Positions 35,085 to 49,828 of a stretch of DNA of 64,000 bases are shown here, piece after piece. The position numbers were made by a program, and so were the translations under genes. A model generated the notes under the pieces. That model did no database searches and had not been told where the DNA came from. It saw only the letters and a program-made list of their open reading frames with translations. Location: NCBI GenBank assembly GCA_016875995.1, contig VGOG01000003.1, positions 7,650 through 71,649 of the forward strand. Reading direction: 5' to 3'. Position 1 is the first letter of the stretch. Each line of letters begins with the position of its first letter. This DNA comes from Chloroflexota bacterium (GTDB lineage Bacteria; Chloroflexota; Anaerolineae; VGOG01).

Positions 35085-36055
35085 TCATCGCCGTGGCCAG
35101 CGGCAAAGGCGGCACGGGCAAGACCACCGTGGCGGTGAATCTGGCGTTCTCGATAGCGTCTCAGCGTCCTAGCGTCAAAGCGTCTAAGCATCAAAGCGAT
35201 AAGAGGGCTGAGGCGCTGGGCCGCTACGATGCTAAGATGCTGTTTTTGGATTGCGATGTAGAAGAGCCCAATGCCCACCTTTTTCTAAATCCCACCATCG
35301 AACGCCGGGAGGAGGTGGGCATCCTCATCCCGGAGGTGGACTACAGCAAGTGCACCTTCTGTGGGCGCTGTGCGGAGGTGTGCGCCTACCACGCCATCGC
35401 CGTCGTGAAGCAGCAGGTGCTCATCTTCCCTGAGCTTTGCCACGGCTGCGGCAGTTGCACCCTGAATTGTCCTGAGAAAGCCATCCACGAGGTGCTGAAG
35501 GTAACGGGGGTTATCGAGGAAGGATGGGCCCTTGCCCAACCTCAAAGTTCAAAGCTCAAAGCTCAAACAGGGCAGGCACGGATTATCCGTTTCGCTCACG
35601 GTATTTTGAACATTGGCGAGCCAATGGCCGTGCCTGTCATCCGCCAGTTGAAGAAGCGCATCGGGGAGGCGGACTTGCATCCGCACTCAATGGTCATACT
35701 GGATGCCTCGCCGGGCACTGCCTGTCCGGTGGTGGAGACCATGCGTGGGGCCGACTTCGTGTTGATGGTCACCGAGCCGACCCCCTTTGGCCTGCACGAT
35801 CTGAAGCTGGCCGTCGAAGTGGCCCGCGACGAGCTGGGGCTGCCCGTGGGGGTGGTGATCAACCGCGACGGCGTGGGCGACCGGGGCGTGGAGGACTACT
35901 GCGCCGCCGAGGGCATCCCCATCCTGATGCGCATCCCCCTCGACCGGCGCATCGCTGAGGCCTACTCAGAGGGAGTAGTAATGGTGGAAGCTTTGCCGGA
36001 GTATCGAGAGCGATTGGTCAAGCTGTACCGCCGCATCGCAGAGGAGGCCCGATGA
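35081..36055 (+). CDS. MinD/ParA-type P-loop ATPase with an inserted 2x[4Fe-4S] ferredoxin domain (COG1149-type)
   Basis: MIIAVASGKGGTGKTT...CTFCGRCAEVC...CHGCGSCTLNCP. The start overlaps the DUF1847 stop (ATGA). The track ORF 34856 is an upstream extension. Confidence 0.85.
   Translation: MIIAVASGKGGTGKTTVAVNLAFSIASQRPSVKASKHQSDKRAEALGRYDAKMLFLDCDVEEPNAHLFLNPTIERREEVGILIPEVDYSKCTFCGRCAEVCAYHAIAVVKQQVLIFPELCHGCGSCTLNCPEKAIHEVLKVTGVIEEGWALAQPQSSKLKAQTGQARIIRFAHGILNIGEPMAVPVIRQLKKRIGEADLHPHSMVILDASPGTACPVVETMRGADFVLMVTEPTPFGLHDLKLAVEVARDELGLPVGVVINRDGVGDRGVEDYCAAEGIPILMRIPLDRRIAEAYSEGVVMVEALPEYRERLVKLYRRIAEEAR
35155..35243. repeat. stuttered palindromic element inserted in-frame (AGCGTC/GATGCT units)
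   Basis: agcgtctcagcgtcctagcgtcaaagcgtctaagcatc...gctacgatgctaagatgctg encodes SQRPSVKASKHQSDKRAEALGRYDAKM. It sits between the P-loop helix and the LFLDCDVEEPN motif. Confidence 0.6.
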
Positions 36056-37008
36056 AGCAACTGGTCATTCTCAGCGGCAAAGGGGGCACCGGCAAGACCA
36101 CGGTAGCGGCGGCGCTGGCTCACCTGGCCTCAAGGGAAATGCCCATCGTCCTGGCCGACGCCGACGTGGACGCGGCCAACCTGGAGTTGGTATTGTCTCC
36201 AGAGGTGCAGGAGACCCACGACTTCGTCGGCGGCAAACTGGCTATCATTGACCCCGACCTGTGCACCGCCTGCGGCATCTGCGCCGAGGTCTGTCGTTTT
36301 GAGGCTGTCGTTCCGCCCTCACCCCCACCTCCCCATCCCCCCTCCCCCTCTCCCAACCTTGGGAGAGGGGGAGGGGGGCGCAGGGGGGAGAGGGTGAGGG
36401 CCTACGCCATAGACCCCATCGCCTGCGAGGGCTGCGCCTCCTGCTTCTACCAGTGTCCGGCAGGGGCCATCCGCATGGAGGAGCAAGTGGCCGGGCGGTG
36501 GTTCCACTCCGATACCCGTTTCGGCCCCCTCTTTCATGCTCACCTCTTCGCCGCGCAAGAGAACTCCGGCAAGCTGGTGACGCTGGTCAAACAGCAGGGG
36601 CGACTGCGGGCTCTGGACGAGGGGCGTGAGCTGCTCATCGTGGATGGCCCGCCAGGCATCGGCTGTCCGGTCATCGCCGCCAGCGCGGGGGCCGACCTGG
36701 CCCTGCTGGTGGTGGAGCCCACTGTCTCCGGCGTCCACGACCTGGAGCGCATCCTGACCACCACCAACCACTTTGGCGTGCCGGCCCTGGTCTGCATCAA
36801 CAAGGCCGACATCAACCCACGGCGGGCCAAGGAAATCGCCGCTTTCTGTGCCACGCAGGGGATCGCGTTGGTGGGACAGGTGCCCTTTGACACCGTGGTT
36901 ACTGAGGCCATGGTGCAGGGCCTGCCGGTGACGGCCTTCAGCGATGGCCTGGTGAGCCGAGCATTGCGGTGCATCTGGGCACGAACCAGGGAGGTATTGA
37001 GGCCATGA
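36052..37008 (+). CDS. MinD/ParA-type P-loop ATPase with an inserted ferredoxin domain (second paralog)
   Basis: ILSGKGGTGKTT...CTACGICAEVC...CEGCASCFYQCP. Confidence 0.85.
   Translation: MKQLVILSGKGGTGKTTVAAALAHLASREMPIVLADADVDAANLELVLSPEVQETHDFVGGKLAIIDPDLCTACGICAEVCRFEAVVPPSPPPPHPPSPSPNLGRGGGGRRGERVRAYAIDPIACEGCASCFYQCPAGAIRMEEQVAGRWFHSDTRFGPLFHAHLFAAQENSGKLVTLVKQQGRLRALDEGRELLIVDGPPGIGCPVIAASAGADLALLVVEPTVSGVHDLERILTTTNHFGVPALVCINKADINPRRAKEIAAFCATQGIALVGQVPFDTVVTEAMVQGLPVTAFSDGLVSRALRCIWARTREVLRP
36316..36400. repeat. about 85-nt GC-rich imperfect palindrome inserted in-frame between the two Fe-S motifs
   Basis: gccctcacccccacctccccatcccccctccccctctcccaaccttgggagagggggaggggggcgcaggggggagagggtgagggc encodes PPSPPPPHPPSPSPNLGRGGGGRRGERVRA. 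Confidence 0.8.
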
Positions 37009-39223: not shown

Positions 39224-39299
39224 GATCAAGCTCACGCTGAACCTGTTTGTCCTGGCAGCAAAGCAGTGAAAATCCTGGCCAAGCCTATGAAATTGGGTA

Positions 39300-39328
39300 T
39301 TGATTTTTGCCTCAGTCTGTGGTACAAT
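39300..39328 (+). promoter_or_regulatory. sigma70-like promoter (distal) upstream of the island operon
   Basis: TTGATT-17 nt-TACAAT with an extended TG. Confidence 0.45.
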
Positions 39329-39459
39329 AAATAGTAGAGATTGGAGGGTAGCATCGTCGTAGTCCTTGTTCCAGACTAGTTCACCGAGGAGGGTAGTGTG
39401 AATGATTGACAGCCATCTTCTATCCTGGGAGCAATCCTAGTAGGCGGTTGGCTGTTTAT

Positions 39460-39488
39460 TTGTGCCGGCGCCGCCGTTGCGATATAAT
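39460..39488 (+). promoter_or_regulatory. sigma70-like promoter (proximal) upstream of the island operon
   Basis: TTGTGC-17 nt-TATAAT, 154 nt before the methyltransferase ATG. Confidence 0.45.
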
Positions 39489-39641
39489 TGGGGTGAGCTG
39501 ACTTCCACGGCGACACCGGCGCGCTGGAGGCAGGTTGGCAGTAGCATAAACGGAGCAAATACTTCTGTACCGCAGTGGCTCGTTGCCTGTCATCATAACT
39601 ATCGCGCAACAGGGTTCATTCGCTTTTGGGTATCAAGTTTA

Positions 39642-41642
39642 ATGACTAAGCCCGAGAACCTCCAAAACATACTCACAGAGATAGCACAGGATGTTGCCAG
39701 CAAAAGTGACAGCCGAATTGCTGCGGAAGCTTTTGACGTCTACAGACGATGTTTGGAGCCTCTTGCAGAACCTTATGTTCGCAATGGGTTTCTCGATGAG
39801 GACAAGGCACTGCCCCGTTTCTTGTCTGAGACAGCTACCTTACATTTGGTCGTGTCACTTATCCCTCAGTGGTGTGCTGTGCATAATCTCGGCTGCGCAG
39901 AGAGTTTCTGGGATATCCATCCAGAAGCACGTTTTTTCTCATGGTACAAAGTCCCAAAGGCACTTTCATCCGAAATAAGAAACTGGGTTATCGCTCACTC
40001 AGATATTACCGATGTGCTTCAAGCTGTCGCTCTAGTTGCAGAGAGTTCTCTAGCAGGACTCAGACGTCGTTCCCTGGGAGAGTTCTTCACTCCTACTGAG
40101 ATAGCTCAGCACTTGGTGGCTCTCACTGATTATGATCCCCTCACAATGCTTGAATATAAGGTGGCTGATCCAGCTTGTGGGAGCGGAAATCTGTTAGCGG
40201 CTGTGGTTGCAAAGACTGTTCAGGCAGCGCAATCAGGTTTACTAGACCCAGTTACAGCTATCTCCAGCATAAATCGTAATATCTGCGGCTTTGACATACA
40301 GCCTATTGCAATCCTTTTGACTCGACTCCAACTCCTACTTGCGAGTCTGTCTATTCTAAAGTGCTCTGGATTGTCCGACACGAATGTGTACGAAACCTTA
40401 TCGTTTCCTTGTGTGCAATTACGTGATCCGCTCTCAACTCCTGAAGATCTTTGGGACTTGTTTGCGCCATTTGACATTGTAATAGGCAATCCGCCTTTTC
40501 TGAAAGTAACCAAAAAGCAGTTGCCTTTCGTGACACACTATAAGGATATTCTAGCAGGCCAGCCCAATCTCTATCAGTTGTTCCTATGGTGGGCTATACG
40601 GGCAACTCGAGTTGGGGGTCGTGTGACCTTCTTGGTTCCTCAATCCATGAGGGCAGGACAATACCTTCGCAAGCTACGCAGGGAGATTGCCAACACCTGT
40701 GAGATGACTGCTATCACCTGCTTTGTGGATCGTACTGGCGTGTTTGACTCCGTGGATCAGCAGATGATGATCTTAGCCCTAAGAAAGCTAACAGAAGAGT
40801 CGAAGAGGGCTGATGTTGCTGTCCAGATAAGCGCAAATGGGCAATCACTGGCGCGCCGGTCTGTGTTAAAAGTAGGCCAGGATCAGTTGGTTTGGATGCA
40901 AGAAGATAAGCCTATCTGGTGTATCTCAAATGAGATGATGGATTATGCGATTCTGGCCAAAGTGTGTGAGGGACAACCTGTTCTAGGAAGATCGAAGGAG
41001 TTCAAGATCCTCAACGGTGGTTTCGTGTGGAATCAACACAAGGAAAGATTGAGATCAACAGAAAGCGATAACACATTACCACTTATCTCCTCCGCTTCAA
41101 TAGGTGTTCATCAATTTACGTTCCCGCCGTCTGGTAAGCGGGTTTCCCAACGATTGTTTGCAGACGCAACACCCCCAATCGCGGAACCTACTCATAAGAC
41201 TCGACCTATTCTGCTGAAGCGCACTACTCCAAGAAAAGCGAGAGGGCGACGAATTGTCGCAGCCCTGTTGTCCGATGATTTTCTTGCTAAATACCCAACC
41301 TACTTTGTGGAAAATCATGTTAATCTCATTTGTGCAACACAGCGTAGCACAGCAGACCGCCATCTGTCTGGACTTTCCGCTTGGCTCAACTCCAGACTAG
41401 CCAACTTCGTCTTCAGTATGATGAATGGGTCATCTCATCTATCGAAGTTTGAGCTGGAACTCATACCTGCGCCTATGCCCCTGTTGGGAGAATTGAGCGA
41501 TCTTGCCAACACCTTGCTCACTAGCCCCACTGAGAAGCGGCGTGAGATACTGAACCAGATCGATACGAGCGCGTTCAAGTTCTTCGGGCTTTCGCCGGAG
41601 GAATCTCATCGAGTTATGCAAGTAGTCCCGCCTGTTATTTAG
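39642..41642 (+). CDS. N6-adenine DNA methyltransferase, gamma class (Eco57I-type catalytic domain with a TaqI-like C-terminal target-recognition region); no nuclease domain
   Basis: GEFFTP (40077-40094), ADPACGSGNLL (motif I, 40167-40196) and VIGNPPF (motif IV; NPPF 40488-40499). Start set at ATG 39642. The track start 39462 lies in the higher-G+C leader. Confidence 0.88.
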   Translation: MTKPENLQNILTEIAQDVASKSDSRIAAEAFDVYRRCLEPLAEPYVRNGFLDEDKALPRFLSETATLHLVVSLIPQWCAVHNLGCAESFWDIHPEARFFSWYKVPKALSSEIRNWVIAHSDITDVLQAVALVAESSLAGLRRRSLGEFFTPTEIAQHLVALTDYDPLTMLEYKVADPACGSGNLLAAVVAKTVQAAQSGLLDPVTAISSINRNICGFDIQPIAILLTRLQLLLASLSILKCSGLSDTNVYETLSFPCVQLRDPLSTPEDLWDLFAPFDIVIGNPPFLKVTKKQLPFVTHYKDILAGQPNLYQLFLWWAIRATRVGGRVTFLVPQSMRAGQYLRKLRREIANTCEMTAITCFVDRTGVFDSVDQQMMILALRKLTEESKRADVAVQISANGQSLARRSVLKVGQDQLVWMQEDKPIWCISNEMMDYAILAKVCEGQPVLGRSKEFKILNGGFVWNQHKERLRSTESDNTLPLISSASIGVHQFTFPPSGKRVSQRLFADATPPIAEPTHKTRPILLKRTTPRKARGRRIVAALLSDDFLAKYPTYFVENHVNLICATQRSTADRHLSGLSAWLNSRLANFVFSMMNGSSHLSKFELELIPAPMPLLGELSDLANTLLTSPTEKRREILNQIDTSAFKFFGLSPEESHRVMQVVPPVI

Positions 41643-41654
41643 GGAGCGAGCGTT

Positions 41655-43931
41655 ATGGCAAAGAAACCAGGGGATCAAGAAGAGCTCTCTTTCTCTATCA
41701 CCGCTCGAACTGCGCTCTTGTTGGGCCGAGAGAGCATCTCGAGCCCAGTAGTGGCGGTGCTTGAACTCGTCAAGAACGCCTACGACGCTGATGCCAATAA
41801 CGCAACTGTCCGTTTTCGCAAGGCAGGCACATCTGAGGGTACAATCGAGATTTCAGATGATGGCCATGGAATGACTTGGGAGGATATTAAGACCAAATGG
41901 ATGGTCATCGGGACAGACAATAAGCAGAGGGAGCCGATTTCTCCAGGTGGGCGCATCAGAGTCGGTGAAAAGGGTATTGGGCGTTTTGCTTTGGATCGTT
42001 TGGCATCTCAGGTGGTTTTAGAAACGACACCCAAGCTTCCTGACCGTGAGCCAGCAGAACCTACTTATCGCCTGACCATAGATTGGGATAGTTTTGTGAA
42101 CACGAACAAGCCACTGCATGAGATTCCGCAGCCTGCTGAGGTACTGGAGCGTCGAGAAAAGCCAGGAACTCGCTTATTGCTAAGAGGGCTGCGAGATAGC
42201 TGGACACGCAGAGACTATGAGCGATTATACCGCAACTTAGCAGTGTTGGTCCCTCCTTTTGAGTCAAAGCTAAAAGGATTCGGTATCAGATTCGATTGCG
42301 ACGAGGCCAGGGATCTCTCTGGACGTGTTCGCAGTCCGATGGCGAAGGCCGCGCTTTTCAAGATGCGAGCCAGACTAGACGAGGACAACCAGGTAAGAAT
42401 CTCTATCACGACCAGAGACAGCTCACCTGGTGGTAAACTCAGACCCTTCAAACGTTATAAGCGTACGTGGCAGGAGTTGTTTGATATTCCAGAAGATCAG
42501 CCGGTACAGCCACAATGTGGTCCTCTCGAGTTCGAATTCTATTTCTACCTACGTGAAGCACCGGCTCTCGAGGGTACTGGTATTACTCTTGGCCAGTTAA
42601 GAGAGTTTCTTGACATATACGGGGGCGTGCGAATCTATCGGGATAGTTTTCGCGTGAAGCCCTATGGTGACCCAGGTGGGGCTGGAGATTGGCTGGGTCT
42701 AAGTGCACGGAGAGTGCGGCATCCTGCAGGAGTTAGGAGTCGCAAAGCAGGTAAGTGGGCCGTAGGCGAGAACCAAGTAGCTGCCAGTGTCTTCGTTTCT
42801 CGACACACTAATCCCGATCTCAGAGATCAAACGAATCGGGAAGGCTTGTTTGACAATCAAGCCTTTCGCGACATGCGCGGCTTTGTACTGCAGTGCATTG
42901 AGATTTTTGAGACAGATCGCAAACAGTATGAACTCAGCAAACTCCCCGATGAACCTCAAACAGTCGGGGATGCTATGGAGGAGGCAAAAGGAGAGATCCT
43001 CACGGAGGTTGAGAGGCTCGAAGAAGTTCTTGTCTCTCAGCCCGATACTCCTCAGAAGGCTGCCCTTATTGGCGCGCTGGATCAGTTCAAGGAAACCCAG
43101 GTTGAGAGGTTCGAGACACTGGAAGTCGCTTATGAAGCAGAGCGACAAGAGACAGTAAGCAAGCTCCAATTATTGCAGAACCTGGCGACTGTCGGGATCG
43201 CTGTATCTTCAATGGGGCACGAAGTATTGGAGACCAGCCGTCATATCATGAACGCTGTCAAGCGGTTGAAAGAGCGTCTCACTTCGCTGTTGCTCTTCTC
43301 CGATGAAAAAGCCGATCAGTATATGGAACGGCTTCACCGCTATGGTCAGATTATGTATTCGGTGAGCAACTTTGCCCTTGGCCACATAGACCGTGATAAA
43401 CGTCACAGACAGGAGGTCAATGTAGATTCCATAATCCGGAAGTTGTATAAAGAAACGTTGGAAGAGATGTGTTCGACCAATAATGCAGATATCGGCCTCA
43501 AATTAGGAGGAGTGCCCGATATCTACGCTTTCCCCTATGAGGTAGAGTCGATTGTTATTAACTTTGTCACCAACTCACTGGCTGCGTTTCGCCGTGGCCG
43601 TACACCTGTAGCAGACAGACGCATCGAGATTGAGACCCAGTATAATGAGTCAGCTCGCCAGATACAGATAATTGCACGTGATAGTGGACCTGGTATCCCC
43701 AAAGGAGATGCAGAACGTATCTTCAATATCTATTCCACGAAGGTGGATAATGAAGGAAAACCAATAGGAACTGGGCTGGGATTGGTAATCGTTAAAGATA
43801 TCGTCGAGAGCCATAAGGGCACAATTAAAGTTGTAGAGAACGGACGTGTACTGCCTGGAGCCGAGTTTGTTGTGACTTTGCCGGCGCCGCGGAAGCGAGG
43901 TCGAAGAAAGGGAAATGGAGATGGACGATAA
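41655..43931 (+). CDS. dual-GHKL protein: N-terminal MORC/HATPase_c_3-like ATPase, about 300-aa linker, then a DHp plus HATPase_c histidine kinase
   Basis: N-terminal part: LELVKNAYDADA, ISDDGHGMT, GEKGIGRFA. C-terminal part: H-box VSSMGHEVLE (His522, 43218-43220), N-box NFVTNSLAA, G1 DSGPGIP, G2 GTGLGLVIV. No TM segments seen. Confidence 0.85.
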   Translation: MAKKPGDQEELSFSITARTALLLGRESISSPVVAVLELVKNAYDADANNATVRFRKAGTSEGTIEISDDGHGMTWEDIKTKWMVIGTDNKQREPISPGGRIRVGEKGIGRFALDRLASQVVLETTPKLPDREPAEPTYRLTIDWDSFVNTNKPLHEIPQPAEVLERREKPGTRLLLRGLRDSWTRRDYERLYRNLAVLVPPFESKLKGFGIRFDCDEARDLSGRVRSPMAKAALFKMRARLDEDNQVRISITTRDSSPGGKLRPFKRYKRTWQELFDIPEDQPVQPQCGPLEFEFYFYLREAPALEGTGITLGQLREFLDIYGGVRIYRDSFRVKPYGDPGGAGDWLGLSARRVRHPAGVRSRKAGKWAVGENQVAASVFVSRHTNPDLRDQTNREGLFDNQAFRDMRGFVLQCIEIFETDRKQYELSKLPDEPQTVGDAMEEAKGEILTEVERLEEVLVSQPDTPQKAALIGALDQFKETQVERFETLEVAYEAERQETVSKLQLLQNLATVGIAVSSMGHEVLETSRHIMNAVKRLKERLTSLLLFSDEKADQYMERLHRYGQIMYSVSNFALGHIDRDKRHRQEVNVDSIIRKLYKETLEEMCSTNNADIGLKLGGVPDIYAFPYEVESIVINFVTNSLAAFRRGRTPVADRRIEIETQYNESARQIQIIARDSGPGIPKGDAERIFNIYSTKVDNEGKPIGTGLGLVIVKDIVESHKGTIKVVENGRVLPGAEFVVTLPAPRKRGRRKGNGDGR

Positions 43932-44712
43932 GCTCACTATTCTTTTTGTTGAAGACGATCCAGATAGTGCCAGCGATTATAAAGGAGACATTGAGGCACT
44001 GATTGATGTGACGGTGATCGCCATCGCTCCCCCGGCAGATCTTCTGGATCTAACAGCACTGGTCAACGAAGTTAATGCCAGCGCGGTTATCCTTGACGAG
44101 CGGTTGCAACAACTTTCAGATGCCACATATGCGGGGATCGATGCGTTCGATTACTTGCGAAGTGCTTTCCCTGGATTGCCCGTAGATATCTTGACCGCTT
44201 ACCCCCATAGTTCTGAACTAAAACGGCGCGGGCTCCAGATAGATCATCTGATAAGAAAACGGGATCTTGACGATGACGAGGCTTATAAGCAGTCGTACTT
44301 GCAAGAGCTTTACCAAAGAATGAGACGTTATCGGCAAAGAGAGGATGAACGTCACGAGTTCATGGCAGCGTCCGATACAGTCACCAAGGAATTTGTCGAA
44401 AGCCTTGCTCAACTTCATTTCGAAGCCGACGATGGGATAGAGCAGATCATTTGGGTGAGGAGCGGCGATGAGAAGGAGATACGCCTGATTGAGGTCAATC
44501 GGACCGCCCTGCCGACTGAGAGCATTCAAATATTTCGATTTGCGCCTTCTGAGGATGTGCCTTTCCCGACATTCATTGCTGACATCAGACCCACGGAGTG
44601 GGAGCGCATCCAAAGCGGGGATATTCCACTACCTGAAGGCTGGTCTCTCGAAGAAACTCGAGTATTCCGACGCTCTGAGGTACTACCGAAGGGAAGAGAA
44701 GATGTGGGCTAA
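43915..44712 (+). CDS. response-regulator receiver domain protein with an uncharacterised about 120-aa C-terminal domain
   Basis: REC landmarks at CheY-like spacing: ED14D15, D61 (ILDERL; 44095-44097), T94, K115. It overlaps the kinase gene by 17 nt. Confidence 0.8.
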   Translation: MEMDDKLTILFVEDDPDSASDYKGDIEALIDVTVIAIAPPADLLDLTALVNEVNASAVILDERLQQLSDATYAGIDAFDYLRSAFPGLPVDILTAYPHSSELKRRGLQIDHLIRKRDLDDDEAYKQSYLQELYQRMRRYRQREDERHEFMAASDTVTKEFVESLAQLHFEADDGIEQIIWVRSGDEKEIRLIEVNRTALPTESIQIFRFAPSEDVPFPTFIADIRPTEWERIQSGDIPLPEGWSLEETRVFRRSEVLPKGREDVG

Positions 44713-45193
44713 TGCGTATCTTGAGCAAGCGCGTTCAGATTGGGATACTCGTAGGTTAATTGTGGAGAACGCATGTGCGGCTTGTCATGAACTCCACTAC
44801 CTGCAGATGACGACTGAAAAACTTGGCAAGGCAGTGCTGTTAAGAAGTGGGGCCGAGCTGGATGATCTGAGTACAACACACAAGACATTTATTCGCTTTC
44901 TACGAGTTGTTGCTAGAAACTCTGGTCTTCGACGAGAGTTTCAATTCAACGCTCGCCAACTGCAAGCGTATGTGACGGGAATCCTGCCTGTTGCCGATCA
45001 AATCGAACGGCTGGTTCCTGCACTTGCTCATGATGGCCCAAACGCTGAGTATCCCTGGGAGACTCCTTCTGGAGAAGTGCAGGTTCCCGCATCTTATGCT
45101 TTCCCCGTGGCCGAAGAACTGAGAGGACCCCAAGGACGCAAGCTGTTAAGCCTGATCTCTGTTATCCTCGATAGATTTGACGCCTTCTTTTGA
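44702..45193 (+). CDS. small helical protein, HEPN-like (tentative)
   Basis: AYLEQARSDWDTRRLI...LHYLQMTTEKLGKAVLL...THKTFIRFL resembles HEPN helices 1-3. A candidate Rx6H motif RLVPALAH lies at 45008-45031. It overlaps the REC gene by 11 nt. Confidence 0.45.
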   Translation: MWANAYLEQARSDWDTRRLIVENACAACHELHYLQMTTEKLGKAVLLRSGAELDDLSTTHKTFIRFLRVVARNSGLRREFQFNARQLQAYVTGILPVADQIERLVPALAHDGPNAEYPWETPSGEVQVPASYAFPVAEELRGPQGRKLLSLISVILDRFDAFF

Positions 45194-45458
45194 TATGATA
45201 GCCCGATTTGAACCGCTGAACTTGGACGTTATCTGTGACCTCAGCCCCAACCCAATGTAACCTTCCGCTTCGCTCAGGGCAAACCCTGTCGAACCATGAC
45301 TAAATGGCGCACCTGCGCCATCAAGTATAGGTGCAAAAACTCCTCAGTTGATAGCCTGTCCTCGACTGTTCCTCCTAATCGACCATTCACCACCTAATCC
45401 TCGACTCCTGCAGCCTGTTCTGCTATTGCAGGGCGCACAGCGGCACCACAGTGTTGTT

Positions 45459-45487
45459 TGCACGCAAAGTCAGACCGTAGTATACTT
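45459..45487 (+). promoter_or_regulatory. sigma70-like promoter (copy 1 of a duplicated 37-nt cassette)
   Basis: TTGCAC-17 nt-TATACT within tgtttgcacgcaaagtcagaccgtagtatacttggtg. Confidence 0.5.
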
Positions 45488-45727
45488 GGTGCGGGGGAAA
45501 AGTCGGCTACCGCTTTTCGAGCAGAAGACCGCAGGAGGTAGCGCAGACGGATGAATCTCTTTCGGCCCTTTGGGTGAATAGCCAGCGTTTGCGTGCTAGC
45601 TCTGAGACGCTGGCGACACGGGAATTTCGGAACTAGCAATGCTGAACTGATTTCTTCAGTGGGCAGGCGCATCCAATTCCAGATGCACCAGCCTGAAATA
45701 GAGCAAATCTTCTCAAGGAGGTGCTAT

Positions 45728-47243: not shown

Positions 47244-48089
47244 ATGGGAAACTCGAATTGGAACAACGAAGAAGTGAATGTTGAAGTGAGCTACCTGAGC
47301 ATGGCGGCTAGTATCCACCGTGTGACAGGGCCCGCCATCCGTTCCGCGATCCGCGCTCTCCAACTCCCGTCGGGGAGTCGGGGACTCGATGCGGGGTGTG
47401 GAATCGGCACCCACACGCTGTGGCTGGCGGAAGCCGTATCGCCCGATGGACACGTCACCGGTGTAGATATTTCGCCCGAATGTCTGGCCCGCGCAGAGGA
47501 GATCGTGGGGTCGAGCGAACTGGCGGAAGCGGTTTCCTTCCAGTATGGAGACATGAATGATCTCCCCTTTGAGGACGATGCGTTTGATTGGGTGTGGAAT
47601 GTGGATACTTTGTGGCCTGTCGGTGGCAAGGATCCTCGGCCATTGGTGAATGAGCTTGTACGAGTGGTGAAGCCTGGAGGGACTCTCGCCATCCTTTTCT
47701 GGTCTTCCCAGAGATTGCTTCCGGGGTATCCCTTGCTGGAGGCCCGGCTGAACGCCACATTAGCGGCGAGCTTCCCCTACACCGACGATACGAAGCCGGA
47801 GTTGCATATTCTGCGTGCACTGGGATGGCTTCAGGAGGCGGGCCTGGGGGAGCCCCGGGTTCGCACTTTCGTGGCCGATGTTCAAGCCCCGCTAGATGGC
47901 GCAGCGCGGAACGCTTTGACGGCAAGCTTTCAGATGTTGTGGGGGAAAGCAGAATCAGAGGTAACACCAGATGATTGGGCGGAGTTTCGACGGCTCTGTC
48001 AGCCGGAGTCGCCGGATTTCATTCTGAATCTTCCCGACTACTATGCCTTCATCACGTATTCGCTTTTCTATGGCAAAGTACCCAAGTAG
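47244..48089 (+). CDS. class I SAM-dependent methyltransferase
   Basis: GLDAGCGIGTHTLWLAE...VKPGGTLAILFW. Confidence 0.85.
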   Translation: MGNSNWNNEEVNVEVSYLSMAASIHRVTGPAIRSAIRALQLPSGSRGLDAGCGIGTHTLWLAEAVSPDGHVTGVDISPECLARAEEIVGSSELAEAVSFQYGDMNDLPFEDDAFDWVWNVDTLWPVGGKDPRPLVNELVRVVKPGGTLAILFWSSQRLLPGYPLLEARLNATLAASFPYTDDTKPELHILRALGWLQEAGLGEPRVRTFVADVQAPLDGAARNALTASFQMLWGKAESEVTPDDWAEFRRLCQPESPDFILNLPDYYAFITYSLFYGKVPK

Positions 48090-48138
48090 GCCGTTCGGAT
48101 TGATAGCGACATGGGCTGGGTGCCCAGGGGGAGGAAAG

Positions 48139-48933
48139 ATGATAGAAGATGCATCGAGAGATAGTGGAGGGATCAGGAAAGGGTGGGACGAGCGTGCTAA
48201 CAGATATGATGCATGGTACGGGACTTTTCAGGGCGCTGTTGAACACCAGGTGGATTGGGAGCTGCTGAGAGCATATCTCCCCCAGAACAGGGATGTAAAC
48301 ATCCTGGATGCTGCTGGCGGAACCGGGAGGATCACACTCCCCTTGACGAAGATGGGATACTCGGTGACTCTATGTGATATCTCTCCCGCAATGCTCAACG
48401 TGGCAAGGCAGAAATTGCTGAGAGAGGGGGTGTTAGACAAAGTAGAGATACTGGAGTGTGATGTTCGCAAACTTCGCTTTGCCGACGAGAGTTTCGATTT
48501 TGTCCTTTGCTGGAATGGTGGGATCGAAGCCGCCAAAGAGCTCATACGGGTGACGAGGAAGGGAGGAAGGATTTCGATATTCCTGGTGAACAAGTGGGCC
48601 GCAGCCATCGGGGGTTTCTCCAGAGATTCCACCTCCGCCCTCGCATTGATCAAGTCCACGCCAGGTTATGTGGAAGATGAAGGAGAGAGATACAGGGCCG
48701 TCAGCGCAGAAGAAGCTAGAGAGTTGTTTAAGGCTGGGGGGATCAGAGTCATGGACATCTATGCTGTTTGCGGCTGGATGGACGTGCTCCGTATACCGCA
48801 AGAAGTTCAGAGGTCTCGTGATTGGGATGAGCAATTCTTCAGCCAGGCAGTTGAGATGGTGTTAAGACTGGCTAAAGAGCCTTCTGTCAGAGGAATGTCA
48901 AGGCATTTGGTTCTATATGGAGAGAAGATGTAG
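48139..48933 (+). CDS. class I SAM-dependent methyltransferase
   Basis: ILDAAGGTGRITLPL...TRKGGRISIF. RBS GGAGG. The track start 48043 is an upstream extension. Confidence 0.85.
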   Translation: MIEDASRDSGGIRKGWDERANRYDAWYGTFQGAVEHQVDWELLRAYLPQNRDVNILDAAGGTGRITLPLTKMGYSVTLCDISPAMLNVARQKLLREGVLDKVEILECDVRKLRFADESFDFVLCWNGGIEAAKELIRVTRKGGRISIFLVNKWAAAIGGFSRDSTSALALIKSTPGYVEDEGERYRAVSAEEARELFKAGGIRVMDIYAVCGWMDVLRIPQEVQRSRDWDEQFFSQAVEMVLRLAKEPSVRGMSRHLVLYGEKM

Positions 48934-49032
48934 CATGGGAAAGCAAAGGTTTGCCTGATGTGGCAGGTGGTGCTATAATTCTGTTGCTGTACAGGAACGC
49001 ACGATTGCTGGGATTTGCGTGAGGGGAGGCGA

Positions 49033-49828
49033 GATGTCTGATAGTGTGCTGAAGGTGGCGACGTTCAACACGAACTCCATCCGCTCCCGGTTGGAACAGG
49101 TGGTGGACTGGCTGGATCGGGAGGCTCCAGAAATCCTATGCCTGCAGGAGACGAAGGTGCAGGACGAGGATTTCCCGGCGGAGCCGATCCGAGACGCGGG
49201 CTACCACGTGGTCTTCCGCGGACAGAAAGCCTATGCGGGCGTGGCCATCGTCAGCCGGGAGCAGCCCCAGGAGGTCGCCTTCGGCTTCGACGATGGCGGC
49301 GAGCCCGACGAGGCACGCCTGATCCAGGCGGTGATCTGGGGCATCCCGGTGGTCAACACTTACGTCCCCCAGGGACGCTCCCCGGATTCGGAGCACTTCC
49401 AGTATAAGCTGAAGTGGCTGGCCCGACTGCGGGCTCTTTTTGAGCGAAACTACGCGCCCGATGAGCCACTCCTGTGGATGGGCGACTTCAACGTGGCCCC
49501 CGAGCCGATTGACGTGCACGATCCCAAGCGGCTGAAGGACCACGTGGACTTCCATCCTGAGGCTCGCGTTGCTCTGGAGCGCGTGCGGGAGTGGGGCTTC
49601 GTGGATGTCTTTCGGCTACACCATCCTGGGGAGCCGGGGCAGTACACTTTCTGGGATTACCGGGTGCGGAACGCACTGGAGCGAGGGATCGGCTGGCGGG
49701 TGGATCACATCTGGGCCACTGAGACGCTGGCCCGCAGGTCCACCGGGGCGTGGATTGACGTGGAAGCGCGAAGGGCGGAGCGGCCCTCGGATCACACCTT
49801 CCTGGTGGCCGAGTTCACGCCAGCGTGA
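49033..49828 (+). CDS. xth: exodeoxyribonuclease III
   Basis: [15 protein letters not shown]...ILCLQETK...WMGDFNVAP...WDYR...DHIW...SDHTF. Confidence 0.92.

Follow-up and report, generated by a model that had tools for sequence, protein, structure and literature searches.

Introduction

Ambrosia, the described system closest to the locus treated here, consists of AbrR (an XRE protein), AbrA (an N6-adenine methylase), AbrB (a kinase with a HATPase domain), AbrC (a receiver), and AbrD (an HNH protein), and it gives Pseudomonas aeruginosa protection against two groups of phages (bioRxiv 10.1101/2025.09.30.679545). According to the same preprint, defence was lost on mutating conserved residues of any predicted functional domain, and the substitutions AbrB N40A and AbrC D60A each abolished it. 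Phage methylated by AbrA was still restricted, and abrA and abrD reporter fusions were strongly induced during infection. Its authors favour transcriptional control by AbrC, which they describe with a winged helix-turn-helix, and they give the range of the system as Gammaproteobacteria, mostly Pseudomonadales. Here, a related four-gene cassette was analyzed in a stretch of 64,000 nucleotides (nt) from a Chloroflexota bacterium (assembly GCA_016875995.1, contig VGOG01000003.1, positions 7,650 to 71,649), which is called the window below. The cassette encodes a DNA methyltransferase (g1), a fusion of a MORC-like GHKL ATPase with a histidine kinase (g2), a receiver fused to a second domain (g3), and a small helical protein (g4). 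We consider it rather probable that it is a mobile anti-phage cassette of the Ambrosia family with a different effector, in which phosphotransfer from His522 of g2 to Asp61 of g3 releases a g4 toxin.

The core of the cassette had also been foreseen computationally. Soluble kinases composed of HATPase_c_3, HEF_HK, and HATPase_c domains, paired with Response_reg_2 receivers, were reported to be enriched near type II restriction-modification genes (Bellieny-Rabelo et al. 2021, PMC8011034); that study was purely computational, and its set was mostly linked to C5 methylases. The window locus resembles this family in the soluble HATPase_c_3, DHp, and HATPase_c layout of g2, in the atypical receiver next to it, and in the restriction-modification linkage, but its own family is not recognized by the PF19191 and PF19192 models. 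None of 64 receivers matched PF19192 (26 of the 64 matched PF00072), g2 itself gave no PF19191 match, and 1 of 59 kinases did (E 0.0048), by which membership was ruled out. The original prediction knew of no described system of such composition; this no longer holds for the core, since the combination of methylase, GHKL kinase, and receiver was foreseen in 2021 (PMC8011034) and experimentally validated, under the name Ambrosia, in 2025. Only the effector differs, and what is new here is the fusion of a receiver to an antitoxin-like domain, the large unannotated family formed by g4 and its partner, and, for the kinase family, its wide spread and exchangeable effectors.

A further comparison is offered by Detocs (DtcA/DtcB/DtcC), in which the phosphorylated receiver domain of a His-Asp phosphorelay reportedly controls a cell-killing effector; the system is said to have no methylase, to use a different sensor, and to carry its effector fused directly to the receiver. 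A His-Asp phosphorelay to an effector is also proposed for the window cassette, which differs in having a methylase, in its sensor, and in an effector that is not on the receiver. With PADLOC, g2 and g3 gave no defence-system match above weak unrelated ones; the presence of Detocs models in the release is unconfirmed.

Relationship of the Cassette to Ambrosia

The Ambrosia sequences of Table S1 of the preprint were compared with the window proteins by BLASTP. Residues 1-400 of AbrB aligned to g2 with 38% identity over 411 amino acids (aa; E 2e-76), and AbrA aligned to g1 with 26% identity over 269 aa (E 8e-12) and matched the hidden Markov model (HMM) built from the g1 family at 3e-65. The alignment of AbrC to g3 was confined to the receiver (31% identity over 117 aa, E 3e-14); the C-terminal region of g3 is not homologous to AbrC. 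Sequence comparison thus shows that AbrA, AbrB, and AbrC have homologues in g1, g2, and the receiver of g3, which places the cassette in the validated Ambrosia family. The original prediction had seen in the four genes a defence system that signals from a histidine to an aspartate towards an effector, and the homology of three of the proteins to AbrA, AbrB, and AbrC bears this out.

The likeness extends to the order of the genes. An N6-adenine methylase, a histidine kinase with two GHKL modules, and a receiver protein follow one another in both systems and are translationally coupled, and the key residues correspond, N40 of AbrB being N41 of g2 and D60 of AbrC being D61 of g3. On the other side, the window has no AbrD HNH endonuclease, none of its proteins shows similarity to AbrD, and g4 stands in that place instead; an open reading frame (ORF) for the XRE regulator AbrR is likewise absent. 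The C-terminal region of g3 is the domain that partners g4, whereas AbrC has a helical tail, and g1 is longer than AbrA (666 versus 448 aa). The hosts are Chloroflexota and not Pseudomonadales. Because the HNH and XRE features are missing, the cassette is regarded as an Ambrosia variant, not as a member. Clear homologues of AbrA to AbrD were found in other loci of the kinase family, namely those of the HNH type (L008, L032, L009, and L004).

The Sensor Kinase and the Receiver

At its N-terminus, the kinase g2 has a MORC/paraMORC-like GHKL ATPase (aa ~14-196), which is followed by a conserved middle domain with the motifs RIYRDxFRVKPYG and DQTNREG, a DHp domain with His522, and a C-terminal HATPase_c domain. 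The Pfam match to HATPase_c_3 covers aa 31-130 (8e-21), and that to HATPase_c covers aa 630-745 (2e-23). The N-terminal 170 residues matched the NCBIfam BbrUII/HgiDII restriction-enzyme family (3e-20), and with PADLOC the REase_II models were matched by the N-terminal part, next to a weak PDC-M43B match. When 59 g2 relatives were aligned, H522, N640, and G705/G707/G709 were invariant, and the Bergerat residues of the N-terminal module (E37, N41, D68, G70, and G72), as well as D676, G678, and G680, were conserved at ≥90%. Because these residues are kept, both ATP-binding modules and the phospho-accepting histidine look functional, and the earlier description of g2 as a MORC-like GHKL module joined to a complete histidine kinase was borne out. 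The nearest known proteins for the N-terminal module are GHKL-containing restriction enzymes and paraMORC proteins (the BbrUII/HgiDII family; Shedu type I-D such as VcSduA, PMC12137116; Iyer et al. 2008, PMC2292703). In these, however, the ATPase is fused to a nuclease, whereas in g2 it is fused to a histidine-kinase core, and the output would be phosphotransfer.

In g3, the receiver with Asp61 (aa 7-120) is joined by a long helix (aa 122-152) to the partner domain (aa 158-256, nt 44386-44682). Its score against the Pfam Response_reg model was 17 bits, under the cut-off. The AlphaFold model showed a (beta-alpha)5 receiver that matched solved receivers (E 2e-5 to 1e-3) such as StyR, CheB, MtrA, and DesR. 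D61 was invariant in 64 g3 relatives, and within the clade of the window protein D14 and T94 were invariant and K115 nearly so. PADLOC returned a weak Csm6 match for g3.

The receiver had thus been recognized correctly in the original prediction, and the "unknown domain" attached to it proved to be the cognate partner of g4. Residues 158-256 are homologous, with 33-67% identity, to free-standing partner proteins of ~100-112 aa (typically ~108 aa), and the fusion of receiver and partner was kept in 45 protein clusters down to 40% identity. No Pfam relatives of the partner domain were found, and no DNA-binding Pfam family was matched. A search of PDB sequences with the partner-domain profile gave no solved structure, and a fold search with the whole of g3 was dominated by receiver domains and did not identify the C-terminal fold. 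The partner domain is poor in conserved polar residues, and g4 is rich in them.

The g4/Partner Pair

Homologues of g4 are numerous. A HMMER scan yielded 1,416 cluster representatives at 50% identity, all of them single-domain proteins of roughly 120-185 aa, and none of 224 homologues obtained with clustering at 90%, all ~163 aa long, carried a Pfam domain. The partner domain was encoded directly upstream of g4 in 79 of 82 metagenomic g4 loci. About 70 of these 82 loci are free-standing two-gene modules, sometimes several on one contig, and in only 8 is the partner fused to the receiver and preceded by the kinase. In these fusion loci, the methylase lies upstream as well wherever the contig is long enough.

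The partner occurs with other N-termini as well. In L168 and L169 it has an RHH/ParD-like N-terminus (in L168, ParD 0.006 and RHH_1 0.028, both sub-threshold), and in L121 an AF2212-like one (0.056, sub-threshold), an architecture shared with L116 and L143. Because the partner lies upstream, is small, takes part in antitoxin-type fusions, and is distributed in multiple copies with g4, the pair appears toxin-antitoxin-like, with g4 as the candidate toxin. As in type II toxin-antitoxin and HEPN-MNT modules, a small upstream partner precedes a helical downstream protein of ~165 aa, often in several copies; the sub-threshold RHH-type fusions and weak HEPN-T hints may add to this likeness. Unlike in HEPN-MNT modules, the partner is not a nucleotidyltransferase and belongs to no known antitoxin family, and the Rx4-6H motif is absent from the g4 family. 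As an observation apart, the partner was found as 2 or 3 tandem copies within one ORF, which immediately precedes a g4 homologue (L136:6167-7000 and L147:5894-7000).

Several g4 pairs lie within methylation-based defence loci. One is part of a BREX-like locus with PglX and PglZ (L086), and others belong to BREX-related DUF499/DUF1156 loci (L168 and L169); further pairs sit in ordinary genomic contexts. Many auxiliary "backup" effectors are known from BREX and BREX-related loci (2026 survey, PMC12839542). With these modules, and with the PrrC-EcoprrI pair, the window cassette would share a latent toxin held in check within a methylation-based defence (PMC3710099; PMC12839542). It differs in that control would use a phosphorelay and a fused antitoxin-like domain, not direct binding to the restriction-modification complex, and g4 is not recognizable as a HEPN anticodon nuclease. 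The present analysis exposed a large unannotated toxin-antitoxin-like family with members in several methylation-based defence systems. We hold it possible, if somewhat doubtful, that the cassette is a toxin-antitoxin switch gated by a phosphorelay and that g4 and its partner form a new and abundant toxin-antitoxin family, absent from Pfam and comprising at least 1,400 clusters at 50% identity. Such a family would have been recruited repeatedly as an abortive-infection backup effector by Ambrosia-like, BREX, and DUF499/DUF1156 systems, and its fold and activity would be unlike those of solved structures. Two of the loci named above were seen to have further content: L168:1-12498 and L169:2156-10457 contain triplets of RHH-like partner, g4, and DUF7680; the former also has a 1,154-aa reverse-transcriptase gene (RVT_1) and UvrD and SNF2 helicases, and the latter a PemK toxin gene.

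Distribution of the Kinase Family and Exchange of Effectors

More than 100 full-length g2 homologues with the same two-GHKL architecture were found, and g2 relatives occur in at least 592 species genomes. Their hosts include Chloroflexota, Pseudomonadota, Bacteroidota, Cyanobacteria, Bacillota, Planctomycetota, members of the Candidate Phyla Radiation, and Nitrosopumilus archaea, which widens the range of the Ambrosia family accordingly. Full-length relatives are present on 65 plasmids; in phage records, a long match was found only in two fragmentary uncultured contigs. No literature was found for the NCBIfam name LM5578_1851.

Synteny was surveyed in 85 kinase loci, in which ORFs were called and iterative HMMs were built. 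The g3 family lies immediately downstream of the g2 relative in 67 of the 85, and the methylase family adjoins the kinase in 55. Two gene orders were observed, methylase-kinase-receiver-effector and kinase-receiver-effector-methylase. Almost all loci have a fourth gene that is tightly coupled to the others but variable: it encodes a PtuB-like HNH endonuclease in 32 loci (Pfam HNH, 2.6e-6), a ComEC-like protein of the metallo-beta-lactamase fold in 17 (Pfam Lactamase_B, 2.3e-9), a ~250-aa protein without a Pfam match in 5, and the 163-aa g4 type in 4 (the window, L005, L001, and L002, the last two being one cassette on two contigs). The examined cassettes therefore use at least four interchangeable effectors. 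The original prediction had asked whether the four genes co-occur elsewhere; kinase, receiver, and methylase do so in many of these loci, and the fourth gene is not constant. Grouping with housekeeping two-component systems had been named as a check on that prediction; the survey spoke the other way, and g1-g4 is a conserved functional unit and not a housekeeping two-component system.

The C-terminal tails of the receivers were found to follow the effectors. Tail clusters map one-to-one onto effector type, as cluster 0 goes with the metallo-beta-lactamase-fold gene (17/17), cluster 3 with the ~250-aa family (5/5), and cluster 5 with g4 (3/3), and every other tail cluster goes with HNH. That the output domain of the receiver tracks the effector, and in the window is the effector's own partner, points to direct post-translational control, as opposed to the published transcriptional model.

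Some of the surveyed loci have settings of their own. Two cassettes on Chloroflexota-like contigs, one of the g4 type (L001:4022-11512) and one of the HNH type (L003:6-7372), lie directly downstream of the urocanase gene hutU, a site which may be a shared insertion hot spot for different effector variants. About 6 kb past the HNH-type cassette of L003 there is a second restriction-modification gene (L003:13935-13992), an Eco57I and BsuBI/PstI-type fusion of 873 aa, and the setting is defence-island-like. In Aggregatilinea lenta (L004:347-18316), an HNH-type cassette is located between a mutasome cluster (RecA-like, Y-family polymerase, and DnaE2-like genes) and phage-tail-like genes (Sipho_Gp37 and Collar), which suggests a prophage or island border. 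On the Klebsiella variicola plasmid pBM374-1 (L170:2706-7575), which gave the best of the plasmid matches, the kinase of a methylase-kinase cassette is frameshifted and split into three annotated coding sequences, so that this is apparently a decaying copy.

Proposed Mechanism and Alternative Explanations

On the reading that we prefer, the MORC-like N-terminal ATPase of g2 would sense an infection cue, probably on DNA, and sensing would drive autophosphorylation of His522. The phosphoryl group would pass to Asp61 of g3, and the resulting change in the receiver would travel via the helix of aa 122-152 to the fused antitoxin-like domain. This domain would then release the g4 toxin, or no longer neutralize it, and the freed g4 would block the production of phage, perhaps through abortive infection. 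From the effect of D60A in AbrC it is expected, by analogy, that phosphorylation of Asp61 is activating. On the more doubtful reading given above, a switch in which phospho-Asp61 releases a toxin, the fusion of receiver and antitoxin would mean that control in Ambrosia-type systems is exerted on proteins.

Several points weigh against this account. The purely post-translational switch that we infer stands against the view of the Ambrosia authors, who favour transcription and saw induction of the operon, and the regulation of the window cassette may differ from that of Ambrosia, the AbrR ORF being absent. The co-variation of tail and effector could come from co-inheritance within clades and not from physical contact. 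The antitoxin-type N-terminal fusions of the partner all lie below the Pfam cut-offs, and no recognizable catalytic fold was found in g4 by fold and profile searches.

Among the other explanations, transcriptional control survives best, and we judge it unlikely. Here, phosphorylated g3 would act on DNA or RNA polymerase through a C-terminus that binds nucleic acid and would induce the operon, of which g4 would be the induced effector. The induction of the abrA and abrD reporters on infection and the winged helix-turn-helix of AbrC (Ambrosia preprint) are in its favour; moreover, type II antitoxins often autoregulate their own operon, and the leader of the window cassette is conserved and promoter-like. 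Yet the C-terminal domain of g3 matches no Pfam DNA-binding family and no PDB sequence, the partner also exists free-standing and strictly paired with g4, its weak RHH-like and AF2212-like fusions would be redundant if the partner itself bound DNA, and the tail type tracks the effector type exactly. The window variant argues against transcription as the sole mechanism, because the output part of g3 has no recognizable DNA-binding domain and is elsewhere fused to separate N-termini with a weak likeness to DNA-binding antitoxin domains.

It is less probable still that g4 and its partner are a hitch-hiking addiction module, a passenger whose fusion to the receiver is incidental, and that any defence falls to the other three activities (methylase, kinase, and receiver) or to a nuclease encoded elsewhere. 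The wide occurrence of free-standing g4 pairs, often in multiple copies like classical toxin-antitoxin modules, the lone pairs in ordinary contexts, and the lack of a recognizable nuclease in the window cassette would all agree with such a passenger. They are countered by the retention of the receiver-partner fusion in 45 clusters to 40% identity, in which D14, D61, and T94 never vary and K115 hardly does; by the position of g4 in the exact slot that HNH and metallo-beta-lactamase-fold effectors take in sister cassettes; and by the constant association of the fusion with kinase and methylase where contigs are long enough.

Features of g4

The AlphaFold model of g4 is helical, with a predicted local distance difference test (pLDDT) score of 95.4. 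Q9, Q35, M36, H60, N114, E116, P118, and W119 were invariant in both g4 alignments (A4 and A7), and P129 was a ninth invariant position among 55 diverse cluster representatives; D13, H32, E39, K40, K43, and Y117 were conserved at ≥90%. The original prediction had called g4 a helical HEPN-like protein with an Rx6H motif. Its helical nature was confirmed; for the HEPN assignment, the window protein gave no Pfam or fold match, and its R103 and H110, which occupy the place of the canonical HEPN motif where helix 3 ends, are variable across the family.

Some hints of HEPN ancestry were nevertheless obtained. An Ex3[KR] motif in helix 2 is a HEPN criterion (PMC3710099), and g4 carries E39-x3-K43 in the predicted helix 27-48, invariant in A4 and conserved at ≥90% in A7. 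The window protein matched neither the HEPN nor the HNH families of Pfam, while 3 of 55 relatives gave weak PF05168 matches (E about 0.004-0.01) and P0239 aligned weakly but co-linearly with this model (aa 6-75 to model positions 2-69, E 0.16). When the g4 model was compared with PDB and BFVD by Foldseek, no match reached E <1; the best PDB match had E 5, and Csx1 came second at a probability of 0.06. The A4 and A7 profiles retrieved nothing relevant from the sequences of PDB, and searches of g4 against Pfam, NCBIfam, PADLOC, and PHROGs returned nothing specific. A divergent HEPN-type RNase is one possibility, and the HEPN call is weakly hinted at, not established. With no fold relative detected, g4 is a candidate for a new effector chemistry.

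The same results bear on the explanation that g4 is no toxin, being instead a subunit with a regulatory or adaptor role, or else a HEPN-like binder of RNA or DNA without activity, in the service of kinase and receiver, with killing done elsewhere by the GHKL protein or host nucleases. We give this little credence, about as much as the passenger hypothesis. It would account for the missing catalytic fold and known active site and for the lack of conservation of the canonical HEPN Rx4-6H motif, and catalytically inactive, binding-only HEPN domains do exist (PMC3710099). However, the nine invariant positions over 55 representatives are mostly polar or aromatic (Q9, Q35, H60, N114, E116, and W119), as is typical of enzymes, and the gene order and the antitoxin-type fusions of the partner suggest that g4 is the toxic half.

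Sequence divergence within the cassette was found to be uneven. In the comparison of the window with L005, the substitution density is highest in g4 (0.22 per site versus 0.08-0.14), and the segment of aa 46-111 (44836-45035), the insert between helices 2 and 3, has 63.5% identity, against 74-99% elsewhere in the island. This segment is fast-evolving or recombined.

The Methyltransferase

The g1 gene encodes a gamma-class N6-adenine DNA methyltransferase, whose ORF is open from 39462. It matched Eco57I (9e-19) and N6_Mtase (9e-16) in Pfam, and the PADLOC MTase_II model aligned to it nearly end to end (1e-68). The motifs FFTP, DPACGSGNLL, and NPPF are present, as is a target-recognition region of its own, and no nuclease domain was detected in g1 with Pfam, PADLOC, or NCBIfam. 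The identification of g1 as an Eco57I-type methyltransferase without a nuclease was thereby upheld. The same three resources revealed no nuclease domain in any of the four proteins, and no cognate restriction endonuclease lies beside the methylase. In this the locus departs from a classical type II restriction-modification system, and the likeness of the g2 N-terminus to BbrUII/HgiDII enzymes is confined to their ATPase part.

By analogy with Ambrosia, g1 is probably required for defence. It may either mark self or create the signal. In Ambrosia, phage that carry AbrA methylation are not spared, and for this reason the suggestion of the original prediction that methylation marks self is unsafe.

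Composition, Borders, and Transfer of the Island

The low G+C content that had been estimated by eye for this region was confirmed by computation. The sliding-window G+C was 0.47-0.52 over 39250-45250, against 0.58-0.69 in the flanks, and the island as a whole has a G+C of 0.497, compared with 0.607 in the remainder of the window. The lowest value among other 6.36-kb stretches of the window was 0.561 (mean 0.612, sd 0.019). At third codon positions, the G+C content of g1-g4 was also lower (0.43-0.50) than in five of six measured neighbouring genes (0.64-0.84); the sixth (0.57) is an ORF of a separate lower-G+C stretch near 48 kb. The coordinates of the features are given in Table 1.

Table 1. 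Features of the transferred cassette in the window
Feature	Position	Strand	Size and basis
Whole transferred cassette	39236..45596	+	6,361 bp, G+C 0.497; 88% nt identity to L005 and L088-L090
Leader, non-coding, with promoter-like site	39236..39641	+	promoter scan; 90-94% identity to L005
g1, gamma-class N6-adenine DNA methyltransferase, AbrA homologue	39642..41642	+	ATG start, 666 aa
g2, soluble sensor kinase, AbrB homologue	41655..43931	+	758 aa; Pfam, NCBIfam, conserved residues
g3, receiver with antitoxin-like partner domain	43915..44712	+	AlphaFold pLDDT 85; fold and sequence matches
g4, helical effector, toxin-like (candidate)	44702..45193	+	163 aa; family alignments; AlphaFold
Conserved non-coding tail	45194..45596	+	400 nt; 83-96% identity to L005

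The ends of the island, 39236 and 45596, were set by comparison with another genome. An Anaerolineae metagenome-assembled genome (L005; L088-L090 have this sequence too) shares 88% identity with the window exactly across this interval, and on both flanks the two are unrelated, with sharp junctions. The right end, placed in the original prediction at about 45.4 kb, was moved to 45596 by this comparison. Because the same 6,361 bp occur in this genome between unrelated flanks, the cassette is horizontally acquired and moved as one unit, as had been supposed from its composition. No tRNA was found by a scan of the window, and neither an integrase or other mobility gene inside the cassette nor direct or inverted repeats at its termini were found, in agreement with what had been noticed before. 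The gene layout also agrees: the four genes are translationally coupled, with a 12-nt gap between g1 and g2, a 17-nt overlap between g2 and g3, and an 11-nt overlap between g3 and g4. That the locus is no defence system and serves epigenetic gene regulation, through soluble two-component control of an orphan methyltransferase, is highly improbable, for the housekeeping nature of neighbouring window genes and the lack of a system-level PADLOC match would suit it, but the homology to a validated anti-phage system, the patchy spread across phyla, the presence on plasmids, the swapped nuclease effectors, and the horizontal transfer as a unit all oppose it.

The leader and the tail are conserved between the window and L005 as strongly as the genes, and they are regarded as non-coding because the substitutions show no codon phase. 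The promoter scan located a promoter-like site at 39300-39328 (TTGATT, a 17-nt spacer, and TG-TACAAT). No plausible ORF was found on either strand in 39224-39641, and hence no ORF for an XRE or C-protein. The RNA fold of the tail was no better than that of shuffles (z-score 0.10), and terminator-like sites were no more frequent than in shuffles. The tail has no Rfam match; the sole Rfam match of the scan was a chance-level sRNA inside g4.

Other Observations in the Window

At 48000-49250 of the window, the G+C content falls a second time, though less deeply (0.51-0.55), and the GC skew is strongly positive. This stretch overlaps two ORFs resembling class-I S-adenosylmethionine-dependent methyltransferases (47244-48089 and 48043-48933). 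In the region's most G+C-rich stretch (0.69), the ORF at 36052-37008 encodes a MinD/ParA-like 4Fe-4S protein with a low-complexity insert rich in proline and glycine (PPSPPPPHPPSPSPNLGRGGGGRRGE).

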